From Kiritimatiellia bacterium (lineage in GTDB: Bacteria; Verrucomicrobiota; Kiritimatiellia; CAIKKV01), in the NCBI GenBank assembly GCA_044346855.1, contig JBIIYJ010000002.1, positions 1,089-65,088 on the forward strand: a stretch of 64,000 nt of DNA. Direction: 5' to 3'. The notes beneath the pieces were generated by a model. The model was not told where the DNA came from. It searched no databases and saw nothing but the letters and a program-made list of their open reading frames with translations. Of the stretch, positions 1 to 59,260 are shown piece by piece. The translations under genes and the position numbers were made by a program. The number at the start of each line of letters is the position of its first letter. Position 1 is the first letter of the stretch.

Positions 1-272
1 TTCCACTGCCGGTATTTGTGGATTTCATCCAGCACCACCAGCGGTTTCGAGCCGTCGACCCTGGGAAGGGCCTCGAAAAAGGCGGGATTCTCCAGCAGGC
101 GCCTTTTATCGGCGGGGATGTCCCAGTTGAAATAAAGTCTGTTTGGAAATGACGCTCCGACAAGCTCGGACAGGGTTGTTTTTCCGCACTGACGGGGACC
201 GGCCATGAGCACAAGGCTCTTTTCGGCGGATAACTCTTTCCAAACCCGTTGATAGAGAGTTCGTTCCAGCAT
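1..272 (-). CDS. AAA+ ATPase (AAA_14/DUF4143-type), 5' part only; gene runs off the left edge
   Basis: Edge-open ORF, so absent from the track. Reverse-strand translation from ATG (CAT at 270-272) reads MLERTLYQRVWKELSAEKSLVLMAGPRQCGKTTLSELV...GSKPLVVLDEIHKYRQW. Walker A is GPRQCGKTT and Walker B is VVLDE. Confidence 0.75.
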   Translation of the reverse strand, partial: MLERTLYQRVWKELSAEKSLVLMAGPRQCGKTTLSELVGASFPNRLYFNWDIPADKRRLLENPAFFEALPRVDGSKPLVVLDEIHKYRQW

Positions 273-334
273 GTGACTATTCTTCAACTAACTGAAAAAT
301 AGTCAAGACTGTTTTTCAATTCGATGAAAAATAG

Positions 335-901
335 TCAGCCCCCGCCAGCATGATTCGTCACGGGATCGGCATACCGGATCTGGCCGTCCTTGCCGAATAC
401 CGGCTTCTCCCCGGCCTGGACCACGGACGGCTCGCGGATGAGGCGGTCGCCCGTCATGGGGATGCTGAGCCAGCCGGAGCGGCGGGCCGCCTCCAGGGCA
501 TAGCGCGAGCAGCTCGGCTCCAGGATGCAGCGGTTGCCGATGGCGGGGCCAATGGCGAACCGGTAAAACCCGACCAGCCCGCGGATGGGCCATTCCCCCG
601 CCCGGCGCCAGAATGATTTGGGAACAGGGGCGCGCGCCTCTTCAGCGTGCGCCCGCAAGCCGCGGATTCCGGGCAGACCGGGCCGGGCCGCATCCACCCT
701 CCGGCATTCGACCAGGCAGGCCGCCCAGTCGCCTTCCTCGGACAATTCGCCGGCCAGCCGCAAGTCGGCGGCATTCGCCGCCGCTGACAAGCCGCCTGCA
801 AGCAGCGAAACCAGAAGCCACAGCGCCAGGGTCTTCGCGGGGCGCATGCCGGCGCGAAGCCTGGCCATGGCAGTCAAAAAAATGGCGGAACGATTTTCCA
901 T
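335..901 (-). CDS. YidD-like (membrane protein insertion efficiency factor family) protein with long N-terminal signal-bearing extension
   Basis: 188-aa ORF. The segment GFYRFAIGPAIGNRCILEPSCSRYALEAARRSGWLSIPMTGDRLIRE fits the YidD signature (Y..ISP..G..CRF.PSCS.Y..EA....G). The N-terminus has a hydrophobic signal-like stretch, LALWLLVSLLAGGLSAAANA. The start lies 9 nt after the upstream stop. Confidence 0.7.
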   Translation of the reverse strand: MENRSAIFLTAMARLRAGMRPAKTLALWLLVSLLAGGLSAAANAADLRLAGELSEEGDWAACLVECRRVDAARPGLPGIRGLRAHAEEARAPVPKSFWRRAGEWPIRGLVGFYRFAIGPAIGNRCILEPSCSRYALEAARRSGWLSIPMTGDRLIREPSVVQAGEKPVFGKDGQIRYADPVTNHAGGG

Positions 902-910
902 ACCCCGACG

Positions 911-3718
911 TTATTTTGAATTCTTCTCGATTTCAACCATCAAAGCCTTGGCGCGATGATTCTCCGGGTCTTCCAACAAGGCTTTTTCGGCCTCGATGCT
1001 CGCTTTTGCCCATAGTTTGTCCTTGGCATTTTTATCGGCCTTCGCCACCCAGTAACCCGCCTTAAGCTCCCTGATCGCGATCGGGAAGGACCGGAAAACA
1101 GTCTGCCAGGCCCCCACGCACTCGGCATGCTTCCCTTGTTTCTCGAATTCTTCCGCCTTGACGATGTTCTGGGTCAAGCTCGCCCAGTTCGCCCCGCCAT
1201 ATTGCGAAAGGTTGGTTAACAGGGAGCTCTGGTCGTAAGCGGGAATACCGAACCCGGCCAATTGTCCCGACGCCTCCTTGAAAGCCTGCTTGTACTTCTC
1301 GCCCAGGCAACGCATCTCCACGATGCCATCGGCCTGATCGCGAAGCTGCCTGGCCCGGGCAAGGTCGGGCCGTTCGGCCAGGGCAGCCTGGGCGTAGGCC
1401 AGGACCTTGTCCCAATTGCGCTGCTTCAACTCGTTTTCCGCTTTTTCAAGCGTCACCTCGGCCCGCATGCGGGCAGTGGCGGCCGGCAATAACGCGCAGG
1501 CCTGCTTCCATGCATTGGAGCCCTCCGGGCCGCGCTCCGCCGCCCCGTATTGCTCCGCTTTGGCGATCATCTCCTTGACCGCAGTCCATTCATCACGGCC
1601 ATACCGATCCATGTGGGCATAAAATCCATCCATGGTTCCGGGGCTGATGTGGTTGTCCGCCACCTCCCGCTCAATCGCCCTGCCTAGCAGGAATTGGAAG
1701 CCCCGTTCCGAGGCTTTGGCGTTCAGCACGATTTCGGCCTTGTTCTTCAACTCAAGCGCCGCGGGCTGATTCGGATAGTCCTTGATGACGGAATCGGCCA
1801 GGGTTGAAACCTCGCCCCAATTCTCACGCCGGGCCTCCTGCTCGATTTTGACGATCCGCAAAGCCAGGATAATCCCGGGCAGGCTTCCGGCCACTTTTTT
1901 CCATTCTTCATTGCAGGCTTCCCACTGATTCAGGGTCGCCAGAAGGCCGGCATTTTTCACGCTCTCGTTGACGCGAGCCCACTCCGGCCCCCCATACAGG
2001 TTCAACTTCGCCAGAAGCTCATCCTTGTTCGCGGCATTGACCACGCCAGTCTCAAGCGCCTGGGCTAACCGTTGCTCGTACGCGACCCTATTGCCCGCCA
2101 ATTCGCGCAGCAGCCGGGCGCTGGGAAGGCCCGGAAATTCGGCCAGCGCCTTGGCCGCGCATTGGCCAGCCTCCGGCGCATCGCCTTTCTTGATGGCTTG
2201 CTCCGCTAGAGAAACCCAGGCTGCCGCCCGCATCAGTTGCACGGAAGGCTTCAATTTCATGCTCGCCACCGTCCATTCCGGGCCGGCATTTTCCCATCGG
2301 GCCTGCTCCGCCTCCTGCCTGGCCTTCGCCCGGCTCGACTGGACAACAGCCCAGAACTCATTCGAGACGGGCTGCCGATCCATCAACGCCACAAACTGGC
2401 TCATCAGCCCTTCGACCGCGAATTTATCAGCCAGGGATTCCTCGTAAAAGACCTGCGTCTTCAACGCGTCAAAAGCCCGCTTGGCCGCCGCCACATTCTT
2501 CATTTCGACAACGGCTTCCGGCATGCCCTGATACAAGGCGGTCGCCGCAGCCCAGCGGGCCTTGGCCGCGGTATAGTGCCTGCCGATAAAGGCCGTCTCG
2601 CCCGCGGCCGTTTCCGCTTCGGCGGCGGCAATCATTTTGGGGACCCATTGCCGGATGGACGCGTCTGCCTCCACGGCCTTCCGTGCGACGGCCGTCTCCT
2701 CCCGCACCTTCACCGCCAGATCCTTGTTTGCCGAAACCGCCCGCCATGTCATTTCCCCACAAACGGCGACCCCAAGAAGCAGGACCGCAAACGAGGCCGT
2801 CCGGAGCGCGAACAGCCGATACCCGCGCAACCGTCCCGGCGCCTCGGATGCACTTTCGCCGACAAGGGATGCAGGCCGGCTCCATTTCTCGACGGCGTGA
2901 TCACCCAGGGTCTGAATGTCCGTCACAAGCGCGCCCAATTCCTTGAACAAGAGACCGGCGTCCACCGCCGGCGCCATCCAATCCGCATGGGCCGCGCCGA
3001 TATGGCTGAAGCTCAGGAAGGAATGCCCTTCAACCTTGATCGGGGTCTGCATGCCGCCCTTTGATGAAACGGCGATAGTCAGATATTCCCGCCTGACAAA
3101 CCAGAACAGGCATATCAGCAGATAACAGGTGGCCGCCCCGGATAGAATCGCCAGGCTGGTCAGGTCGGATCCTCCCGCCCCATTCAGCGAAGGCTTGCCT
3201 GTCGAATAATCAATGAGCGGATTGACGAGAATGCCCGCCCCGGCCGTCGCCAGCAAAAGCCGGGCCCCGGCATCCTTCACCCACAGCGAACGCACCAGGA
3301 GACCCGCCGCCACCAGCAACTGCACGAAACCGCCACCCATGACAACCAGCGGATTGTGCGCCTTCAGAAGGAGTTGCCCCCACCAGAACGAGGCGGCCAG
3401 AACCAGAAGCGCAAGAATCGCTTGTACCGCCAACGCCGCCACAAGCCGGAAGAGGCTGAAGCGCGTCCCCCGGCTGAGCGTCATGTTGGCTACGTCGGCT
3501 ACCGGAACCTCGGTGTAGCGCTTGCTGCTTCCCTCCGCCCCGAACAAGGACGATCCCAAGGCCAAATAAACAAGTCGCTTGTTCGTCACGGTCAGGTAAC
3601 CGTTGATCTTCATCCCGATGAACGCGAACAACGGCGACAACCCCGTGCAGTGGTAGGACCGCACGACGACTTCGCCTTCCGCCGGCTTCAGATGCCCCTC
3701 AAACAGCTTGAAACTCAT
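911..3718 (-). CDS. Large membrane protein: N-terminal PH/GRAM-like domain, about 5 TM helices, about 600-aa helical C-terminal region with three ~115-aa repeats
   Basis: 935 aa. A GGGAGGG RBS sits about 9 nt upstream of the ATG at 3718. N-terminal GYLTVTNKRLVYLALG resembles bacterial PH/GRAM-type domains. Hydrophobic helices include LFRLVAALAVQAILALLVLAASFWW, FVQLLVAAGLLVRSLWV, LAILSGAATCYLLICLFWFV and ASFAVLLLGVAVCGEMTW. The repeated motif is LNLYGGPEWARV / HMDRYGRDEWTAV / LSQYGGANWASL. Confidence 0.75.
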   Translation of the reverse strand: MSFKLFEGHLKPAEGEVVVRSYHCTGLSPLFAFIGMKINGYLTVTNKRLVYLALGSSLFGAEGSSKRYTEVPVADVANMTLSRGTRFSLFRLVAALAVQAILALLVLAASFWWGQLLLKAHNPLVVMGGGFVQLLVAAGLLVRSLWVKDAGARLLLATAGAGILVNPLIDYSTGKPSLNGAGGSDLTSLAILSGAATCYLLICLFWFVRREYLTIAVSSKGGMQTPIKVEGHSFLSFSHIGAAHADWMAPAVDAGLLFKELGALVTDIQTLGDHAVEKWSRPASLVGESASEAPGRLRGYRLFALRTASFAVLLLGVAVCGEMTWRAVSANKDLAVKVREETAVARKAVEADASIRQWVPKMIAAAEAETAAGETAFIGRHYTAAKARWAAATALYQGMPEAVVEMKNVAAAKRAFDALKTQVFYEESLADKFAVEGLMSQFVALMDRQPVSNEFWAVVQSSRAKARQEAEQARWENAGPEWTVASMKLKPSVQLMRAAAWVSLAEQAIKKGDAPEAGQCAAKALAEFPGLPSARLLRELAGNRVAYEQRLAQALETGVVNAANKDELLAKLNLYGGPEWARVNESVKNAGLLATLNQWEACNEEWKKVAGSLPGIILALRIVKIEQEARRENWGEVSTLADSVIKDYPNQPAALELKNKAEIVLNAKASERGFQFLLGRAIEREVADNHISPGTMDGFYAHMDRYGRDEWTAVKEMIAKAEQYGAAERGPEGSNAWKQACALLPAATARMRAEVTLEKAENELKQRNWDKVLAYAQAALAERPDLARARQLRDQADGIVEMRCLGEKYKQAFKEASGQLAGFGIPAYDQSSLLTNLSQYGGANWASLTQNIVKAEEFEKQGKHAECVGAWQTVFRSFPIAIRELKAGYWVAKADKNAKDKLWAKASIEAEKALLEDPENHRAKALMVEIEKNSK

Positions 3719-3779
3719 GGTCCCGATCCCTCCCGTTCAGCGCGTTTGCCAAAAGACCCGCGATTGCGCGGTTTTCATT

Positions 3780-5078
3780 TTACGTGTGCCGATCAAAGCG
3801 GAATGTGAACGGCATTTCCCCCGAAATGCCCAGAATGGCCTGTCCGATGCCAAGATTCGAAATGTCCCAGTCCTCCACAACATTGCCATCTCGGACATTT
3901 TCAACGATTCCGCGCGTCTGGACCGAGGCCATGTACGACTCCCTCTTGCGGTTCTTCCCGAAAAGGCCCTTGATGAAATCGTTCGTGCTGGCGTCGTGGA
4001 CGCGGAACGCAACCGTGGTCATGAAGCCGGACAAAATGCTGCGGGCGAGCGACTCCCCGTAACCATGGAAGATCTGCTCGATGCTCTGGGCGCCGACAAT
4101 GAACTTCGCCCCCAGGCTCCGACCGAAATTGACGCCGCTATCGATGTGCTGCAGATTGGGAAGCAGCCGGAATTCGTCGATGACGAACCAGACATTCCCC
4201 TCGCTTTTTTCCCGGCACAACGATTCCTTGATCGCAAGGTCAAGAAGCAGCCGGTAAACAGGAGTCAGCATGTTACCGATGCCCAGGTCGTACTCGACAA
4301 ACAGGCAGCGGCCGCCCTTTTTCCGGATCGTGTCCCGGACGGATAGCGTTCCGGGCTTCCTGAAATGGCCGAGCAGGATTTCCCGCACCATCTGCTGAAG
4401 CTCGGACAGCACGCCCTGCGTCTGCGGCGACCGGTCATCCGCGATATAACTGGTCATCGCCTTCATGTCGGGATGAGCTTGGAGCAGCACCCTCAACTCG
4501 GCTGCCGTGGCCTGGTCCAGAAACGCCCGGAGGCGTTCATTGTCCATCTTTTCGCCGGAGCGGGAAAAATGCGTCAGGATGCCGCAGAACAGATCCTTGG
4601 CGGCGTTGGGGAAAAAGGGCTGGCTTGTCTTCTCCGTCCGCTCGTGAAACAGGGTCTTGGCGATTTCGACGATATCCGCCTCCGCCGACCCGCCGACGCC
4701 GATCTCGTTGAATATATTCCAGTAATCCACTTGGCCGGGGCCGGTCGCTTTCGAGTCGTTGCTGATCACGGTGTCGCCGGGCCGGTAGAACGCCGTGTGG
4801 AAATCGCCCTTGGTGTCAAACACCAGCATGACGTCCTGCTCGGTCATCGCCCCCCGCAACTGGTCCACCAGCTGGAAAATGGCGTTGGTTTTGCCGGTTC
4901 CGATGCCGCCCAGGAACAGGAGATGACGGCTGAGCAGGTCTTCTGAAAGAGGGACAGACAGCGGCAGGCCCGACGCGTCGTGACCCAGGAAGCAGCACCG
5001 CGCCCCCGCCGCCTCGCGGGCGGGCGGCTTCGCCTCAAGCCTGTCGCCCTCGAATACCTGAACCGTGTTCATGTGCAA
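3780..5078 (-). CDS. TM-less VirD4/TraG/TrwB-like P-loop ATPase (FtsK-HerA superfamily)
   Basis: 432 aa. Walker A is LFLGGIGTGKTNAI, a Walker B-like segment is NVWFVIDEFRLLPNL, followed by GAKFIVGAQSIEQIF. There is no hydrophobic N-terminal segment. The track start at 5078 is a TTG; the first ATG is at 5072. Confidence 0.8.
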   Translation of the reverse strand: MHMNTVQVFEGDRLEAKPPAREAAGARCCFLGHDASGLPLSVPLSEDLLSRHLLFLGGIGTGKTNAIFQLVDQLRGAMTEQDVMLVFDTKGDFHTAFYRPGDTVISNDSKATGPGQVDYWNIFNEIGVGGSAEADIVEIAKTLFHERTEKTSQPFFPNAAKDLFCGILTHFSRSGEKMDNERLRAFLDQATAAELRVLLQAHPDMKAMTSYIADDRSPQTQGVLSELQQMVREILLGHFRKPGTLSVRDTIRKKGGRCLFVEYDLGIGNMLTPVYRLLLDLAIKESLCREKSEGNVWFVIDEFRLLPNLQHIDSGVNFGRSLGAKFIVGAQSIEQIFHGYGESLARSILSGFMTTVAFRVHDASTNDFIKGLFGKNRKRESYMASVQTRGIVENVRDGNVVEDWDISNLGIGQAILGISGEMPFTFRFDRHT

Positions 5079-5087
5079 TCGGCTTTG

Positions 5088-5339
5088 CTATTGGCTGATG
5101 CCGGTTGAATAATCGTAACCGTCGTCCTGGCCTTGAGCCTTCGTTTCGCCCTTCTCTTTATCGGCTGAAGGCTTGGTCCGCACATCGTTACCGCTAGTTT
5201 TCTCGGCCGTATTTGCCTCCGCCTTTTCTGTAACTCGAGGTCTCGCGTTAGCCTCCATCTCTGCCTCTAGCTCCGCTATTGCATTTTTCTGTAATCTCCG
5301 ACCGTTTGCGATATCCGCCTCTGTCCGCTCATCTTCCAT
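5088..5339 (-). CDS. Small acidic/lysine-rich hypothetical protein (83 aa), probably disordered
   Basis: A perfect AAGGAGG RBS lies about 5 nt upstream of the ATG at 5339. The ORF sits between the M23 gene (47-nt gap) and the ATPase gene (9-nt gap). Sequence is MEDERTEADIANGRRLQKNAIAELEAEMEA...DDGYDYSTGISQ, with no recognisable domain. Confidence 0.55.
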   Translation of the reverse strand: MEDERTEADIANGRRLQKNAIAELEAEMEANARPRVTEKAEANTAEKTSGNDVRTKPSADKEKGETKAQGQDDGYDYSTGISQ

Positions 5340-5386
5340 ATCGCCTCCTTGCTTTTCACCTCAGCCGACATTGATTTCAAATCGAT

Positions 5387-6979
5387 CTAGTGCTTGGCCA
5401 CCGGCACATTGAAATCCAGCCGCCGCACCACATTCGAGCCGGATTCCCTGACTTCGATCACGCACACGGGGCTGGTCTCGATTTTGGCGCTTAGCGGAAC
5501 CGCGATCGTGATCCGGTTGGTGAACGCCGCGTCAGGAGCCAGCGCCGGAACGGGAAAGGCCAGGTCGCTGAAAGCCCGCAGGGTCTTCTCCGCCGGCAGC
5601 GTCACGGCGCACGTCACGTTTTTTGCCGTCTGGGCTCCGTCGTTTTTAACGACCACAACCAGGTCGAAGGCTTCCCCGTTTTGCGCGATCCCGTCGGCAT
5701 TTCCCGAAATGGCCTCCCCTTTGGCAGGGTCATCTTGAATAGAAGCGAAAATGAAGCAGCGAATTTCCGGCGGGAGAGGCTTGGCGGCAACGGCAACGGG
5801 CTTCTCCTCAACGGGTGGAGCCGGCGGTTTTACGGGCGTGTCCGGTTTCACCACCACAGCGGCTGGTCGCGCGACCGAAGCCTCAACGGCCTGGAAAAGG
5901 GGACCTGCCGGATCAATCCATCCCGTCTCGAGATCGCCGGCCTTACAGGCTTGATACGAACCCGGATCAAGAATGCCCAGAAGCGACTCCCAGTTCTTGA
6001 AAAAACGGCTTTCAAACCGCCTGAGTTCCAGGTGCACATGGGTTTTACCGGGCTCCTCTCCCGAATCACCGACGACACCCAGCATTGTCTCGCCCTTTTC
6101 CACCCGTTCCCCCGGCATGACAAAAGGCTTGGAGCCCATGCTGGAATACAAACTCCACCATTTCCGGTTATTCTTATCGAGATGCTCGAGGATGACCAGG
6201 TATCCCAGAACCCGCCAGTTCTTGTCGTTCGGATTATCGATCAGGTCGATCACGGTTCCATCTTCCACCGGATAGATCTTGTCCCCGGGTTTTGCCAGGA
6301 TATCAATGCCGGCATGCACCATTTTGCGGGTGGAGTCATACTTCGCCTTCGAAACGCGCCCTTCGGGTTGAACGTCGACGATGCGTTGCGACACATAGTA
6401 CCGCAGGACCGGCGTCCCATGCCTGCAATCGTCGGTCATTCCCTTGGGGCAGACGATCTTGAAAGGCCGGGTTTCGCTTTTATCGGCAAACGTTTTCAGG
6501 GCTCCCAGCCGGGAATCCGCATTCTTCGCCATGTCCATGATCTCGGCGAACACGATCAGCGCGTTCAGGTCCGTCAGGATCACGGACCGGGGGATGGAAA
6601 TGTCGATCTTGAAATGCACGCTCCGTCCCGGGTCGGCGGTGATGAAATAGCGCGTTGTCAGCGAACCCAGCGCCGCGGGCTGATCAAAGGTCATCAGCCC
6701 GTTCCGCCTGTCAACTTCGGTTATGATGATTTCGCCCTTGGCCTCCGAATCCTTCAAATCGCCGAGCAGTACCGACCACATTGCGTCGATCGAGTTCGTG
6801 CTGATCATGCAAAAGGAGGACATGGTATTCATGAGCCGATTGCGGGTGTAATTGAGGACCGCCGGATGCGTCGCCCTTTTGCCGGTGCGGGCTTCAAAAG
6901 CCTGGCCCAGCGTCTGCTCTTCAGAAAGCCCGGCGGAACACCCAAGCAAAACGAGAACGAACCAAAGAGTTTTTTTCAT
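5387..6979 (-). CDS. M23-family metallopeptidase lipoprotein with C-terminal beta-sandwich-like domain
   Basis: 530 aa. Lipobox-type signal MKKTLWFVLVLLGCSAG. M23 motifs are HAGIDILAKPGDKIYPVEDGTV and GETMLGVVGDSGEEPGKTHVHLELR. A Pro-rich linker (KPDTPVKPPAPPVEEKP) precedes a C-terminal domain. Confidence 0.85.
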   Translation of the reverse strand: MKKTLWFVLVLLGCSAGLSEEQTLGQAFEARTGKRATHPAVLNYTRNRLMNTMSSFCMISTNSIDAMWSVLLGDLKDSEAKGEIIITEVDRRNGLMTFDQPAALGSLTTRYFITADPGRSVHFKIDISIPRSVILTDLNALIVFAEIMDMAKNADSRLGALKTFADKSETRPFKIVCPKGMTDDCRHGTPVLRYYVSQRIVDVQPEGRVSKAKYDSTRKMVHAGIDILAKPGDKIYPVEDGTVIDLIDNPNDKNWRVLGYLVILEHLDKNNRKWWSLYSSMGSKPFVMPGERVEKGETMLGVVGDSGEEPGKTHVHLELRRFESRFFKNWESLLGILDPGSYQACKAGDLETGWIDPAGPLFQAVEASVARPAAVVVKPDTPVKPPAPPVEEKPVAVAAKPLPPEIRCFIFASIQDDPAKGEAISGNADGIAQNGEAFDLVVVVKNDGAQTAKNVTCAVTLPAEKTLRAFSDLAFPVPALAPDAAFTNRITIAVPLSAKIETSPVCVIEVRESGSNVVRRLDFNVPVAKH

Positions 6980-7075
6980 ACCTTTATTCTTTTCACAGGC
7001 TGACGGCCGTTTAAAAAAAGAAAAGCCAAGGATGGTGACAGTCGATTCACGTCCCCCCCTGAAGATAAAAACCGA

Positions 7076-7104
7076 ACTATAGGCTTGATCCCGGCAAACG
7101 TCAA
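7076..7104 (-). promoter_or_regulatory. Sigma70-like promoter for the 6979->335 cassette
   Basis: The reverse strand reads TTGACG (7104-7099), a 17-nt spacer, then TATAGT (7081-7076). It lies about 95 nt upstream of the M23 start codon and just downstream of the terminator at 7165-7199. Confidence 0.5.
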
Positions 7105-7164
7105 GAAATCAGGAACAATTCGCAACGGGAACGGACCCCGAGTTCCCGCGCGGCGCGATTAGGC

Positions 7165-7199
7165 AAAAAAAAGGACCCCGGCTAAATCAGCCGGGGTCC
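7165..7199 (-). terminator. Rho-independent terminator downstream of the small-protein pair
   Basis: An 11-bp perfect stem GGACCCCGGCT / AGCCGGGGTCC (7173-7183 / 7189-7199) has a 5-nt loop. On the minus strand it is followed by an 8-T run (A run at 7165-7172 on plus). Confidence 0.75.
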
Positions 7200-7224
7200 C
7201 GAGATAACGTCTGGGGTCCTGATC

Positions 7225-7509
7225 CTAGTAGTACATCTGCCCGTACTTGTCGGCAAAGTAGTCGGCCGTCTTGCCGTCGGCGCAATCCACGCCGTCCCAG
7301 ATGGCGAACACAAGGCCGGCGTACGGAATCAACCGGCACCATTCGCGCCAGTGGATTTCCTTGCCGTCGTTATAGGCCGCGCCGGCGCGGAGACCGAAGC
7401 AGCACCCGCCGATGAAGCCCATGAACCCGCCCCGGGCCGCCGTGGCAGCCTGGGCCGAGGTGGAGGACAGCAGAACGGCGACCAGGAGAATCGAAAGCAT
7501 TTTGCGCAT
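7225..7509 (-). CDS. Small secreted/membrane Cys-containing protein, paralogue B (94 aa)
   Basis: This is the internal ATG (CAT at 7507-7509) of the 147-aa track ORF. Sequence is MRKMLSILLVAVLLSSTSAQAATAARGGFMGFIGGCCFGLRAGAAYNDGKEIHWREWCRLIPYAGLVFAIWDGVDCADGK...YGQMYY. It has a signal peptide and is about 70% identical to the neighbour by eye. Confidence 0.7.
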   Translation of the reverse strand: MRKMLSILLVAVLLSSTSAQAATAARGGFMGFIGGCCFGLRAGAAYNDGKEIHWREWCRLIPYAGLVFAIWDGVDCADGKTADYFADKYGQMYY

Positions 7510-7522
7510 GGTCAGTTCCCGT

Positions 7523-7810
7523 TTAGTAATACATTGAGCCATACTGGCTGGCCAGGTCGGACGTGGTCTTGCCGTTGGCGCAGTCGATGCCGTCCCAGAT
7601 GCCCACCACGAGACCCACCACGGGGATGATCCGGACCCATTCCCGCCAGTGGATTTCCTTGCCGGCATTATACGCCGTGCCGGTGCGGAGGCCGAAGCAG
7701 CAGCCGCCGATGAAACCCATGAACCCGCCGCGCCCGGCCGCCGGAGCCGCGGACGCCATTGTCGACGTCAGCATGACGGCGACCAGCATCGCAATAATCA
7801 CTTTCTTCAT
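7523..7810 (-). CDS. Small secreted/membrane Cys-containing protein, paralogue A (95 aa)
   Basis: Sequence is MKKVIIAMLVAVMLTSTMASAAPAAGRGGFMGFIGGCCFGLRTGTAYNAGKEIHWREWVRIIPVVGLVVGIWDGIDCANGK...YGSMYY. An AAGGAGG RBS lies at 7814-7820. Two glycine-rich hydrophobic segments are present. Confidence 0.7.
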   Translation of the reverse strand: MKKVIIAMLVAVMLTSTMASAAPAAGRGGFMGFIGGCCFGLRTGTAYNAGKEIHWREWVRIIPVVGLVVGIWDGIDCANGKTTSDLASQYGSMYY

Positions 7811-57989: not shown

Positions 57990-59260
57990 CCGTTCTCCTG
58001 AACACCCTTCGCAGCACTTCAAAGTTTCTTTCCGTTTAGTTGTATGTTGTCCGGGCTTGGTTAAGCCTTCAAGATGGCGCCTTCAGGCACCAGGTCCTGC
58101 TCCACGAACTTCCATAGCGCGATGAGCAGCTTCCTGGCCAACGCGACGATTCCCTTGCGTTTGGATCGGCTGGTGCCGTCCCGGACGAAACGATCCAAGA
58201 ACCAGTTCGTTAACGCGCTTTTCGGTTGCCACCGGACCCAGCCCCAGGCCAACTCGATCATGGTGGCACGTACACGCACGCTGCCGGCCTTGCTGATCCC
58301 CTGCTCGCGAAGCGTATCGCCGCTATCGTAGGGCGTCCCCGTCAGACCGGCAAACGACCCGAGTTGCTTGCGATTGCCGAACACGCGCCAGCCAAAACAT
58401 TCATGGCTCAGGATCCATCCGCTTTGGACGCCAACCGCCTTTAACCGGCACAACTTTGCCGCCTTCGCGGCGGCCGCGGTCACCGGTTTTCCCAGGGCTG
58501 CGGCCTGTTGCGTCTCCACCTCCTTCATTTGCTCTTCCACAAGAACCAAGCGCTCTTGCTCCCGATTCAACTCGTTGACCAAGAGCGCCGGCAAGGGCTT
58601 GCCTTCCCAGTCGCGCACCTGGTCCATTCTTGTTCTGGCGGGATTTCCGATCACCACGCCATGAAGAATGCAGAGCGATTTGATCCGGGCGTAGTGCCCC
58701 GTGCGCTCCTTCACCAGCCGTTGCCGTACACGATGCCGACGCGTCTCGGCCTCCTGCGTTTCGCTGGGCACGCGCACGACCGCATAGGCATCCGCTTGCC
58801 CCCACAGCACCTTGCGCAACAACAGCTGTAATAACTTCCGCGCATCCAACCGATCGGTTTTCCGCTGTCGGGCCCGACGGGGCACTTCAATGCTGGCCGG
58901 GTCCATCACGTGACAATCGCAGCCGTGATTCTGGAGCATCCGCGAGATCCAGAACCCATCCCGCCCCGCCTCATACCCAAACAGCGCCTTCGCATTGGGG
59001 GGCAGTCCCAGCTTCTCTTTCGCAACGGCCAACTCATGAATCAATTGCGCCTCATTGCGGGCGAGGATCGTCCGCTCCCGCTCCCGGCTCCCGTCGCCAA
59101 ACACCAGCTTCCATTTCTTGTTGCTCAGTTCCATCGCACGAATACAGTCTTCTCTTGCAGGGTCATGGCTCAGCCTCCAGGTTGGTGTTTCAGTCACAAC
59201 AACTATAGTGGCTGATCATGGCCCTGCATAGTATCTCCGTAGAAAAGGCGAAATGCATCC
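57990..59260 (-). mobile_element. IS110-family insertion sequence (ends not determined)
   Basis: A single transposase ORF sits in a locally lower-GC segment. IS110-family elements lack classical terminal inverted repeats, so the boundaries given are approximate. Confidence 0.5.
58061..59197 (-). CDS. IS110-family transposase/recombinase (DEDD RuvC-like N-domain + Transposase_20 C-domain)
   Basis: 378 aa. N-terminal AMELSNKKWKLVF...FGYEAGRDGFWISRML...KTDRLDARKLL. C-terminal LGSFAGLTGTPYDSGDTLREQGISKAGSVRVRATMIELAW. Confidence 0.9.
   Translation of the reverse strand: MTETPTWRLSHDPAREDCIRAMELSNKKWKLVFGDGSRERERTILARNEAQLIHELAVAKEKLGLPPNAKALFGYEAGRDGFWISRMLQNHGCDCHVMDPASIEVPRRARQRKTDRLDARKLLQLLLRKVLWGQADAYAVVRVPSETQEAETRRHRVRQRLVKERTGHYARIKSLCILHGVVIGNPARTRMDQVRDWEGKPLPALLVNELNREQERLVLVEEQMKEVETQQAAALGKPVTAAAAKAAKLCRLKAVGVQSGWILSHECFGWRVFGNRKQLGSFAGLTGTPYDSGDTLREQGISKAGSVRVRATMIELAWGWVRWQPKSALTNWFLDRFVRDGTSRSKRKGIVALARKLLIALWKFVEQDLVPEGAILKA

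Follow-up and report, generated by a model that had tools for sequence, protein, structure and literature searches.

What does an ATPase of the coupling-protein type do where no type IV secretion system (T4SS) is encoded around it? This question is raised by a run of five minus-strand genes in a 64-kb stretch of contig JBIIYJ010000002.1 of a Kiritimatiellia bacterium (the whole stretch is called the window hereafter), which the original prediction had read as a self-contained envelope cassette of five genes. In an overall comparison of >140 related loci from at least seven phyla, the recurrent parts are three: an ATPase without transmembrane (TM) anchor, a membrane protein with a pleckstrin homology (PH)-like domain, named C1 here, and an open reading frame (ORF) directly upstream of the ATPase gene that ends in a characteristic tail. 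This three-component module is widespread and appears to be undescribed, and it is probably a new pathway by which polymorphic toxins are exported, guided by the tail and driven by the ATPase. The genes of the window and the parts of their products on which this answer depends are the following.

5387-6979, minus strand: M23 lipoprotein gene, island-borne
5088-5339, minus strand: gene of the 83-aa acidic protein, in the slot directly upstream of the ATPase
5091-5126, minus strand: C-terminal tail DDGYDYSTGISQ of the 83-aa protein, predicted recognition signal, fits the clade consensus
3780-5078, minus strand: gene of the TrwB/TraD-type P-loop ATPase, similar to type IV coupling proteins (T4CPs), with TrwB_AAD_bind domain
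911-3718, minus strand: gene of the 935-aa membrane protein, no Pfam family
2852-3718, minus strand: C1 module, residues 1-289 of the 935-aa protein, a PH/GRAM-like beta-sandwich with an inserted four-helix TM bundle and the end helix FKELGALVTDIQTLGDHAVEKW
2759-2815, minus strand: fifth TM helix (residues 302-320 of the 935-aa protein), 19 residues with a hydropathy of 2.13
911-2758, minus strand: helical-repeat extension of ~615 residues, similar to tetratricopeptide repeats (TPR), predicted to be periplasmic
335-901, minus strand: YidD-domain protein gene with YidD match, native flank

All five ORFs were found again exactly where the original prediction had placed them, with intergenic gaps of 47, 9, 61 and 9 nt, and Pfam searches upheld its domain calls for M23, the coupling-type ATPase and YidD. 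The AAGGAGG ribosome-binding site of the 83-aa protein was located 5 nt before the ATG, and five TM helices (hydropathy and AlphaFold2 (AF2) model) agree with the description of the 935-aa protein as polytopic.

The ATPase and its membrane partner

The ATPase matches the Pfam family TrwB_AAD_bind with 3.9e-48, and in addition T4SS-DNA_transf and TraG-D_C. Its best sequence match in the PDB is TrwB (2.4e-15), with Walker A (GGIGTGKT) and Walker B (VWFVIDEF) aligned. The AF2 model, with a mean predicted local distance difference test (pLDDT) score of 75, has a confident all-alpha insert at residues 120-238 between the two Walker motifs. In Foldseek it matches TrwBdeltaN70 over the full length with an E-value of about 5e-14 and a TM-score of 0.64-0.68, leaving HerA, Cag-beta and VirB4 well behind; the HerA match has 1e-7, and the HerA-SIR2 and HerA-DUF4297 complexes are the next-best structures. 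As the original prediction had stated, a membrane anchor is missing: there is no hydrophobic 19-residue segment in the 432 aa, and the homologues are all about 430-440 aa long. Translation may start at ATG 5072, which gives the 430 aa of database entry P0012, instead of at TTG 5078 (432 aa). The claim of the original prediction that no T4SS genes lie nearby was also borne out, as neither T4SS nor relaxase domains turned up when the 20 largest of the remaining ORFs in the window were scanned; these are metabolic or regulatory (GH2, sulfatase, PcRGLX-like, BNR, glycyl-radical enzyme, hybrid histidine kinase, IS110 transposase). The same picture is seen in the neighbors within +/-10 kb of 80 species-representative ATPase loci, where neither VirB4 nor a relaxase nor any other T4SS family recurs. 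Furthermore, the protein scores far under the curated cut-offs for coupling proteins (TraD_Ftype 96.1 vs 521 bits, VirD4 17.5 vs 681, TraG-Ti 33.7 vs 686) and for T7SS_EccC_b (12.4 vs 346 bits), and it has a single nucleotide-binding domain (NBD). These data support an ATPase that is a TM-less homolog of TrwB/TraD-type coupling proteins with no T4SS nearby.

The distribution of this ATPase is broad and patchy. Relatives that are 50-83% identical occur in 80 genomes of Verrucomicrobia, Victivallales, Chloroflexi, many Clostridia, Leptospirales, Bdellovibrionota and Cloacimonadota, and at E<1e-30 there are >2,800 clusters at 90% identity, all of which carry generic T4SS names. More distant relatives (~41% identical) are found with the same partners on megaplasmids of Paenibacillus and Curtobacterium. 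Across phyla the mean column identity is 74%, so that the protein is unusually conserved. In one metagenome locus (L093, 125-1570) the ATPase gene is split in two ORFs, which is either a frameshift or pseudogene or an assembly error.

The ATPase gene does not travel alone. C1 lies near it on the same strand in 41 of 43 loci with full flanks, as determined by de novo clustering and profile hidden Markov models, and is divergent or farther off in the remaining two. Reciprocally, a metagenome scan seeded with C1 found the ATPase gene immediately upstream in all 11 assessable loci with a long C1. Usually C1, present once or twice, is followed by a small ORF, by an ORF that is highly variable and finally by the ATPase gene; in the close relatives of the window (ATPase 78-84% identical) the small tail protein comes first, then the ATPase and the long C1. 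Genes for zinc-ribbon/TM proteins often flank the loci of Clostridia, and integrase, YARHG, Amidase_3, C-type lectin or SH3_3 genes do so in some cases.

Two sequence features mark C1: the motif GYLTVTNKR, which is invariant, and a C-terminal helix, ELGALxxDxQxxGDxxxxKW, which is nearly so. Its AF2 model (pLDDT 71.8) consists of five beta-strands, four TM helices (two in short forms), two further strands and the terminal helix. The best match in the fold search is the bacterial PH domain 3dcx with a probability of 0.98, yet with an E-value of only 0.057 over 72 columns; this covers the PH-like sub-domain alone, and a match to the whole fold was not obtained. A relative gives a faint bPH_3 match (E 0.019) and the relative P0010 carries a GRAM annotation in Pfam, whereas C1 itself belongs to no Pfam family, although 475 cluster representatives exist. 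In the 935-aa protein, hydropathy places TM segments at residues 92-110, 124-142, 190-208 and 302-320, and one further helix comes from the AF2 model. The original prediction had taken the whole protein as the dedicated partner of the ATPase. This is supported as far as the partnership is concerned, but just the first ~280 residues are the conserved partner module. Long C1 fusions (552-1104 aa) are confined to the clade of the window, which belongs to the Planctomycetes-Verrucomicrobia-Chlamydiae (PVC) type. The isolated 646-residue C-terminal extension matched no Pfam family, and the full protein gave a sub-threshold TPR_2 match. The fifth TM helix is predicted to carry this extension across the inner membrane into the periplasm, since four TM helices precede it and the PH domain would be cytoplasmic.

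C1 is also found apart from the ATPase. The idea that such loci are truncation artefacts was rejected, as it is true for four of them alone (L141-L144), and three locus types from the gut are genuine orphans within +/-8 kb; C1 may also act in trans or have another role. In L121, L123, L127 and similar human-gut metagenome loci short C1 paralogs are paired with zinc-ribbon/TM proteins, and in L142, on the same contig as L117, a short C1 lies beside arrays of Ser/Thr-kinase-like genes.

Tail-bearing ORFs and toxin domains

The third part of the module is defined by its position and its C-terminus. The ORFs in the slot directly upstream of the ATPase range from 83 to 1,112 aa, and their N-termini cannot be aligned. 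Typically they end with an acidic low-complexity stretch followed by a tail like ...EDYxYGYGY, ...GMGM or ...GIGY. A strict pattern for this tail is matched by 35 of 62 immediate-upstream ORFs, compared with 5 of 947 other ORFs (Fisher p=2e-42), and four of these five off-slot matches lie one gene further upstream within the same operon. For the last 100 residues the median net charge is -12, compared with -1 for control ORFs, the extreme being -55 per 100, and an N-terminal hydrophobic segment is missing in 57 of 59 cargoes. Moreover, the tail type tracks the ATPase clades, and in orphan C1 loci without ATPase no tail-bearing ORF was found. The enrichment in the slot, the tracking of clades and the lack of tail ORFs in ATPase-less C1 loci together tie the tail to the ATPase, which is predicted to be both hexameric motor and tail receptor.

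In the window this slot is occupied by the 83-aa protein, which is acidic (net charge -6), of low complexity and without Pfam family. It ends in ...QDDGYDYSTGISQ and agrees with ...DNDY(Y/x)xG(M/L/I)(S/G)Q, the tail consensus of its clade in L001, L002, L003, L082 and seven metagenome loci. The small proteins of this clade (L001-L003, L081, L082 and the seven metagenome loci) are 55-250 aa long, charged and alignable at the tail alone. No other acidic tail-bearing ORF is present in the 64 kb of the window. Judged from sequence, the 83-aa protein can be assumed to be the tail-bearing cargo or substrate of the module in a minimal form without enzymatic domain.

In the relatives the slot can hold larger proteins, some of them with recognizable N-termini. 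ADPrib_exo_Tox (4.6e-25), Endonuclea_NS_2 (1.8e-14), PDDEXK_1, GNAT and ADP-ribosyl-cyclase-like domains were identified there, as well as a DUF6782 metallopeptidase-like domain in four loci. The small ORF upstream of the cargo co-varies with the cargo family and includes members with SUKH-1 (9.1e-11) and IFS-like (4.6e-6) domains. The cargo and the small upstream ORF of Clostridia and Chloroflexi are therefore read as putative toxin-immunity pairs with a reversed layout, in which the toxin comes first and the conserved element last. A reading of every small ORF located between C1 and cargo as an immunity gene proved wrong for one cluster (C23, from L015, L016 and L018), whose members are small tail-bearing proteins in their own right, so that these three loci encode a small tail protein as well as a tailed toxin.

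Another family of ~160-200 aa (clusters C28/C41) lies beside the ATPase gene in L020, L028, L034, L038, L043, L057 and L014, and also in L083 (8255-9402, two copies) and L084 (4524-5156). Since it occurs alongside unrelated cargo types, a role as adaptor or chaperone is more likely than one in immunity. A Pfam scan of this family gave no match, and it may be a PqqD/RRE-like winged-helix adaptor. In L084, the plasmid pS16 of Curtobacterium sp. MCSS17_016, a 584-aa acidic ORF with PEPEPE repeats (5125-6879, plus strand) ends in ...EEGQSWGGGWA and lies directly upstream of the ATPase gene. On the opposite strand the Prokaryotic Genome Annotation Pipeline (PGAP) has annotated a W/L-rich "hypothetical protein" (5437-6711, minus strand); the cargo gene has probably been called on the wrong strand here.

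The inserted island and its native flank

The original prediction had drawn the cassette around all five genes, and at this point it did not hold. Four of the genes sit on a segment that is foreign to its surroundings, and the fifth belongs to the surroundings. The features that define this arrangement are listed here.

~905-7165 (approximate), strand not applicable: inserted genomic island of ~6.3 kb carrying the M23, 83-aa, ATPase and 935-aa genes
7076-7104, minus strand: sigma-70-like promoter candidate TTGACG-17-TATAGT, 10 of 12 consensus matches, within the inserted segment and just past the native terminator
7172-7200, minus strand: intrinsic terminator with a 13-bp stem and T-run, marking the right island boundary

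The relative L085 aligns to positions 8280-7226 and 865-341 of the window and has a spacer of ~440 bp where the window has ~6.3 kb. In syntenic relatives the gene order is hybrid kinase (641 aa), ABC_tran_2 (557 aa), AP_endonuc_2 (330 aa), small proteins of ~95 aa, YidD and AAA_14, and none of the M23, 83-aa, ATPase and 935-aa genes occurs between these flanking genes. The segment also differs in composition: its GC content is 0.590 vs 0.661 elsewhere, none of 102 segments of equal size is as low, and the GC content at third codon positions (GC3) is 0.71-0.79 vs a median of 0.84. A search for direct or inverted repeats flanking the island gave nothing convincing. Positions ~905-7165 are thus a horizontally acquired four-gene island.

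YidD homologs with 56-65% identity, some of them labelled Kiritimatiellia, occupy syntenic loci without the island. As YidD holds the same chromosomal position in relatives without the island, it is native flank and not part of the module, although it is possibly transcribed by read-through from the island operon. The protein of 188 aa has an extra N-terminal signal or TM segment and matches YidD with an E-value of 1.2e-8, above the cut-off in Pfam (35.1 vs 27 bits) and just under it in NCBIfam (37.4 vs 40). The ORF at the left edge (3-287, minus strand) is an AAA_14 (DUF4143-type) ATPase gene that runs off the window and has a promoter-like site of its own, TTGACT-16-AAGAAT at 279-306. AAA_14 follows YidD in L085 as well, which argues that the island operon ends before this gene. 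On the other side the terminator hairpin at 7200-7172 is kept at the empty site of L085 and therefore belongs to the native upstream small-protein gene. The promoter-like sequence described just after this terminator is indeed present at 7104-7076, although such sites show no enrichment relative to shuffled sequence (3 found vs 2.0 expected).

The M23 protein is correctly named. It begins with a lipobox (LLGC), keeps the metal ligands HxxxD (HAGID) and HxH (HVH), and matches Peptidase_M23 (PF01551) with 2.7e-12 over residues 221-322 (47.2 bits vs a cut-off of 28.7). Toward the C-terminus it has a NEW3/CARDB-like beta-sandwich (NPCBM_assoc, 6.2e-6, residues 433-498). Its role as a dedicated core part could not be upheld. 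It is island-borne, having come in together with the island or been inserted into it, but is missing from all 80 ATPase loci. No M23 gene was found near these ATPase homologs or the closest relatives (78-84% identity), a metagenome scan seeded with M23 recovered no close relatives, and tblastn against the 80 loci gave no match for M23, the 83-aa protein or YidD, so that the five genes are not co-conserved. A neighbor with the NEW3-like domain is encoded next to modules of PVC type in L003 and in L093 (35% identity and 4e-19 in L093), in place of the PEGA proteins described below. M23 is a lineage-specific accessory at most. Three unrelated families of peptidoglycan hydrolases occur in module loci of three phyla, namely M23 here, Amidase_3 in four to five loci of Lachnospiraceae and NlpC/P60 in Curtobacterium, which lends some support to a wall-remodelling helper as an interchangeable accessory and not a core part. 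In loci of the Verrucomicrobia type, PEGA-domain (CarboxypepD_reg-like) envelope proteins of 490-885 aa are usually encoded directly downstream of the long C1 (L002 13819-15969, L040 3400-5508, L081 12021-16520, and the P0027 and P0016 contigs); they are missing from the window.

Some further observations were made in the window. A perfect GC-rich palindrome, CCGCGATTGCGCGG, lies at 3758-3771 in the 61-nt gap between the ATPase and 935-aa genes, has a terminator-like score on either strand and could act in attenuation or processing. Upstream of the island (7225-7810, minus strand) there are two tandem paralogous genes for signal-peptide proteins of ~95 aa with the motif GGFMGFIGGCCFGLR(A/T)G...EIHWREW. 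The pair is also present in L085 (474-761 and 784-1071), and the scanned ORFs (7225-7668 and 7523-7810) have no Pfam family. An IS110-family transposase gene (DEDD_Tnp_IS110 and Transposase_20; 58061-59197, minus strand) is located ~51 kb from the island and has no obvious link to it.

Function of the module and comparison with known systems

How could an ATPase, a PH-domain membrane protein and a tailed cargo work together? In the export pathway that we consider probable, the soluble and presumably hexameric ATPase would dock on the cytoplasmic face of oligomeric C1 and bind the C-terminal tail of the cargo, which carries no Sec signal and has a disordered linker, as T4CPs and EccC of type VII secretion systems (T7SSs) bind C-terminal signals. 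ATP hydrolysis would then thread the polyanionic linker and after it the N-terminal domain across the membrane, C-terminus first, and the cargo would end up outside the cell. The acidic linker might serve as a DNA-like track for a motor that is descended from a DNA translocase. In monoderms, ATPase and C1 would suffice for release; in the PVC version the cargo may be taken onward by the periplasmic extension and by envelope accessories. Small proteins that bear the tail could be exported peptides, or pilot or activator substrates comparable to EsxB for EccC. The original prediction had left the choice between a translocation or sensing machine and a defense system; of these, translocation is best supported and defense is less favored than export.

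Several findings weigh against an export pathway. The strict tail pattern is missed by 27 of the 62 upstream ORFs, many of which have looser G-hydrophobic ends and some none. Known enzyme families are matched by about 10 of 48 cargo N-termini, immunity is backed by Pfam for two families alone, and in the window the cargo has no toxin domain and no immunity gene is present. C1 has just 2-4 TM helices and no likeness to a known protein-conducting channel, and an outer-membrane component for the diderm PVC version was not identified. C1 paralogs without ATPase within 8 kb exist in the three gut locus types mentioned above. Finally, a relative with 78% identity (P0027 contig, ENA ERZ1426829) lies directly downstream of PDDEXK_13/REase-ARP, WYL-WCX, AAA, Metallophos and RNase_T genes.

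This last neighborhood, with its PD-(D/E)XK, WYL, AAA and RNase_T genes, would suit an anti-phage or abortive infection system, in which the ATPase senses or moves invading DNA and frees or activates a tail-tethered toxin in the producer itself, the upstream small protein being the antitoxin. The patchy spread across phyla, the low-GC island and the integrase-associated loci likewise resemble defense islands, the HerA complexes are next-best structurally, and PADLOC gives weak matches of the ATPase to mad8 (8.7e-16) and to HerA models (4e-7 or weaker). However, these weak matches are all that the defense predictor returned: there was no system-level match, as the original prediction had anticipated, no match for the other four window proteins, and none for the ATPase in the phage collection. 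The fold is clearly that of TrwB and not of HerA, the exoenzyme-type ADP-ribosyltransferase (ART), Endonuclea_NS_2, SUKH and IFS-like domains are typical of exported polymorphic toxins, and the polytopic partner, the periplasmic extension and the wall-hydrolase neighbors suit export better, so that we regard defense as unlikely. Another rival, a split coupling protein, would keep export but take the channel from elsewhere: an orphan T4CP would feed the cargo to a T4SS encoded at another site, with C1 as the missing anchor. C-terminal signals are the rule for T4SS effectors, and the ATPase has the sequence and the fold of the cytoplasmic domain of a T4CP, with the all-alpha domain by which VirD4 and TrwB bind substrates. 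There are also integrases in some loci of Clostridia, and T4SS components detected with TXSScan are enriched in metagenome-assembled genomes (MAGs) of toxin-positive gut Bacillota (PMC13556189). Against this stand the lack of any recurrent T4SS family in the 80 loci and among the largest ORFs of the window, the typing of the plasmid relatives as non-mobilizable, the widely missed curated cut-offs and the column identity of 74%, which is far higher than expected for a protein that has to match diverse T4SSs. A split coupling protein is accordingly quite improbable.

Two further explanations fare worse. That all five proteins are dedicated parts of one envelope machine is suggested by the tight spacing on one strand behind one promoter-like site, by the location of M23 within the island and by the recurrence of its C-terminal domain in L003 and L093. 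This is already refuted for YidD, which is present in relatives without the island, and very improbable as a whole, with M23 and YidD missing from the 80 ATPase loci and the closest relatives and no M23 relative in the metagenomes. TrwB-type ATPases translocate DNA, and the module might accordingly be a DNA motor for uptake, export or segregation, with the polyanionic tail protein as a DNA-mimic regulator instead of a substrate, for which the extreme acidity of the cargo linkers speaks. But no relaxase, nuclease/primase or competence genes are conserved in the loci, and a regulator role leaves the hypervariable toxin domains and the co-varying immunity-like genes unexplained, so that there is hardly any chance that this is the right explanation.

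Export of polymorphic toxins remains the reading that we prefer. A bolder version of it is tentative, and we would put it somewhat short of an even chance: an unrecognized type of secretion system, in which a T4CP-derived motor and a split-PH membrane protein export toxins C-terminus first by means of an aromatic/Gly tail and a DNA-mimicking linker, with a wide distribution in gut Clostridia, Chloroflexi and PVC bacteria, and which would account for toxin delivery in Bacillota without T7SS. If export is true, one ATPase and one membrane protein would form a minimal secretion route for the interbacterial toxins of many uncultured and gut bacteria. A conjugative coupling ATPase would have been co-opted to export proteins in the absence of the other T4SS parts, and the tail would be a new portable C-terminal export tag. 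According to a 2026 mBio paper (PMC13556189), a secretion system dedicated to the task is missing in most toxin-positive gut Bacillota, in which an "unknown secretion mechanism" may be at work; for those without T7SS the module is a testable candidate, and a Gly-rich mobile C-terminus of the effector was noted in the same work. For the discovery of toxins and immunity proteins a simple rule would follow, namely to look at the ORF that lies directly upstream of the module ATPase and ends in the tail. For annotation, thousands of entries named [quoted passage not shown] are no evidence of conjugation, and acidic-repeat cargo genes are prone to wrong-strand calls.

No prior description of the module was found in the searchable literature, which covers few subscription journals. 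The 2012 survey of polymorphic toxins does not mention VirD4, TraG or TrwB (Zhang et al., 2012), and related papers of the Aravind laboratory refer only to YueA/T7SS pumps. The statement of the original prediction that the set matches no described system can be maintained, as the module has neither the TM anchor and the nearby T4SS genes of T4CPs nor the multi-domain ATPase and the WXG or LXG domains of T7SSs nor the full gene set of a PADLOC system. In its proposed function it comes closest to effector recruitment by VirD4 and to T7SSs. With TrwB of R388, TraD of F and VirD4, the module ATPase shares the fold, Walker A and B and the all-alpha insert. Unlike these proteins it has no N-terminal TM anchor, neither VirB4 nor a VirB channel, pilus or relaxase is encoded nearby, and a dedicated PH/TM partner protein is present that T4SSs do not have. 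The VirD4-dependent antibacterial effectors of Xanthomonas and Stenotrophomonas (X-Tfe, with their VirD4-interacting domain XVIPCD) follow a similar logic, as an ATPase receptor reads a C-terminal signal, the enzymatic domain is N-terminal and a cognate immunity protein exists. In the module, however, the predicted signal is not an XVIPCD of ~120 residues but a short aromatic/Gly tail that follows a polyacidic linker, and the module is found mostly in monoderm Clostridia and Chloroflexi, unlike the VirD4/X-Tfe systems.

T7SSs resemble the module in having a membrane ATPase of the FtsK-HerA superfamily and small disordered or helical substrates whose C-terminal tail engages this ATPase (EccC/EssC, EsxB). 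They also export polymorphic toxins with immunity genes (LXG toxins and the reverse-oriented TslA), with small substrates co-encoded with large toxins, and PH-like accessory proteins (EsaC) occur in their loci (PMC3113570). Unlike EccC, the module ATPase has a single NBD and not three and belongs to the TrwB and not to the FtsK/YueA clade. There are no EssA/EssB/EsaA or EccB/D/E components, the cargo is toxin-first, and neither the 83-aa protein nor the 48 cargo N-termini gave a WXG or LXG match in Pfam. The HerA-based defense systems (SIR2-HerA, DUF4297-HerA) and mad8 of MADS share the P-loop superfamily and the mobile, patchy distribution. Their partner genes are absent here, the TrwB fold match is about six orders better in E-value, and they have no obligate membrane partner or tail-bearing cargo. 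The cytoplasmic domain of C1 may resemble that of bacterial PH membrane proteins (bPH/YdbT-type, GRAM, DUF1696). Unlike them, C1 has its TM bundle inserted within the PH-like domain, possesses a family-specific capping helix motif, is linked to an ATPase and has no Pfam model. Finally, the hypervariable toxins and co-varying immunity proteins of polymorphic toxin systems (Zhang et al., 2012) are shared by the relatives of the module and not by the window. Unlike in those toxins, which have N-terminal trafficking and C-terminal toxin domains, the order in the module is reversed.

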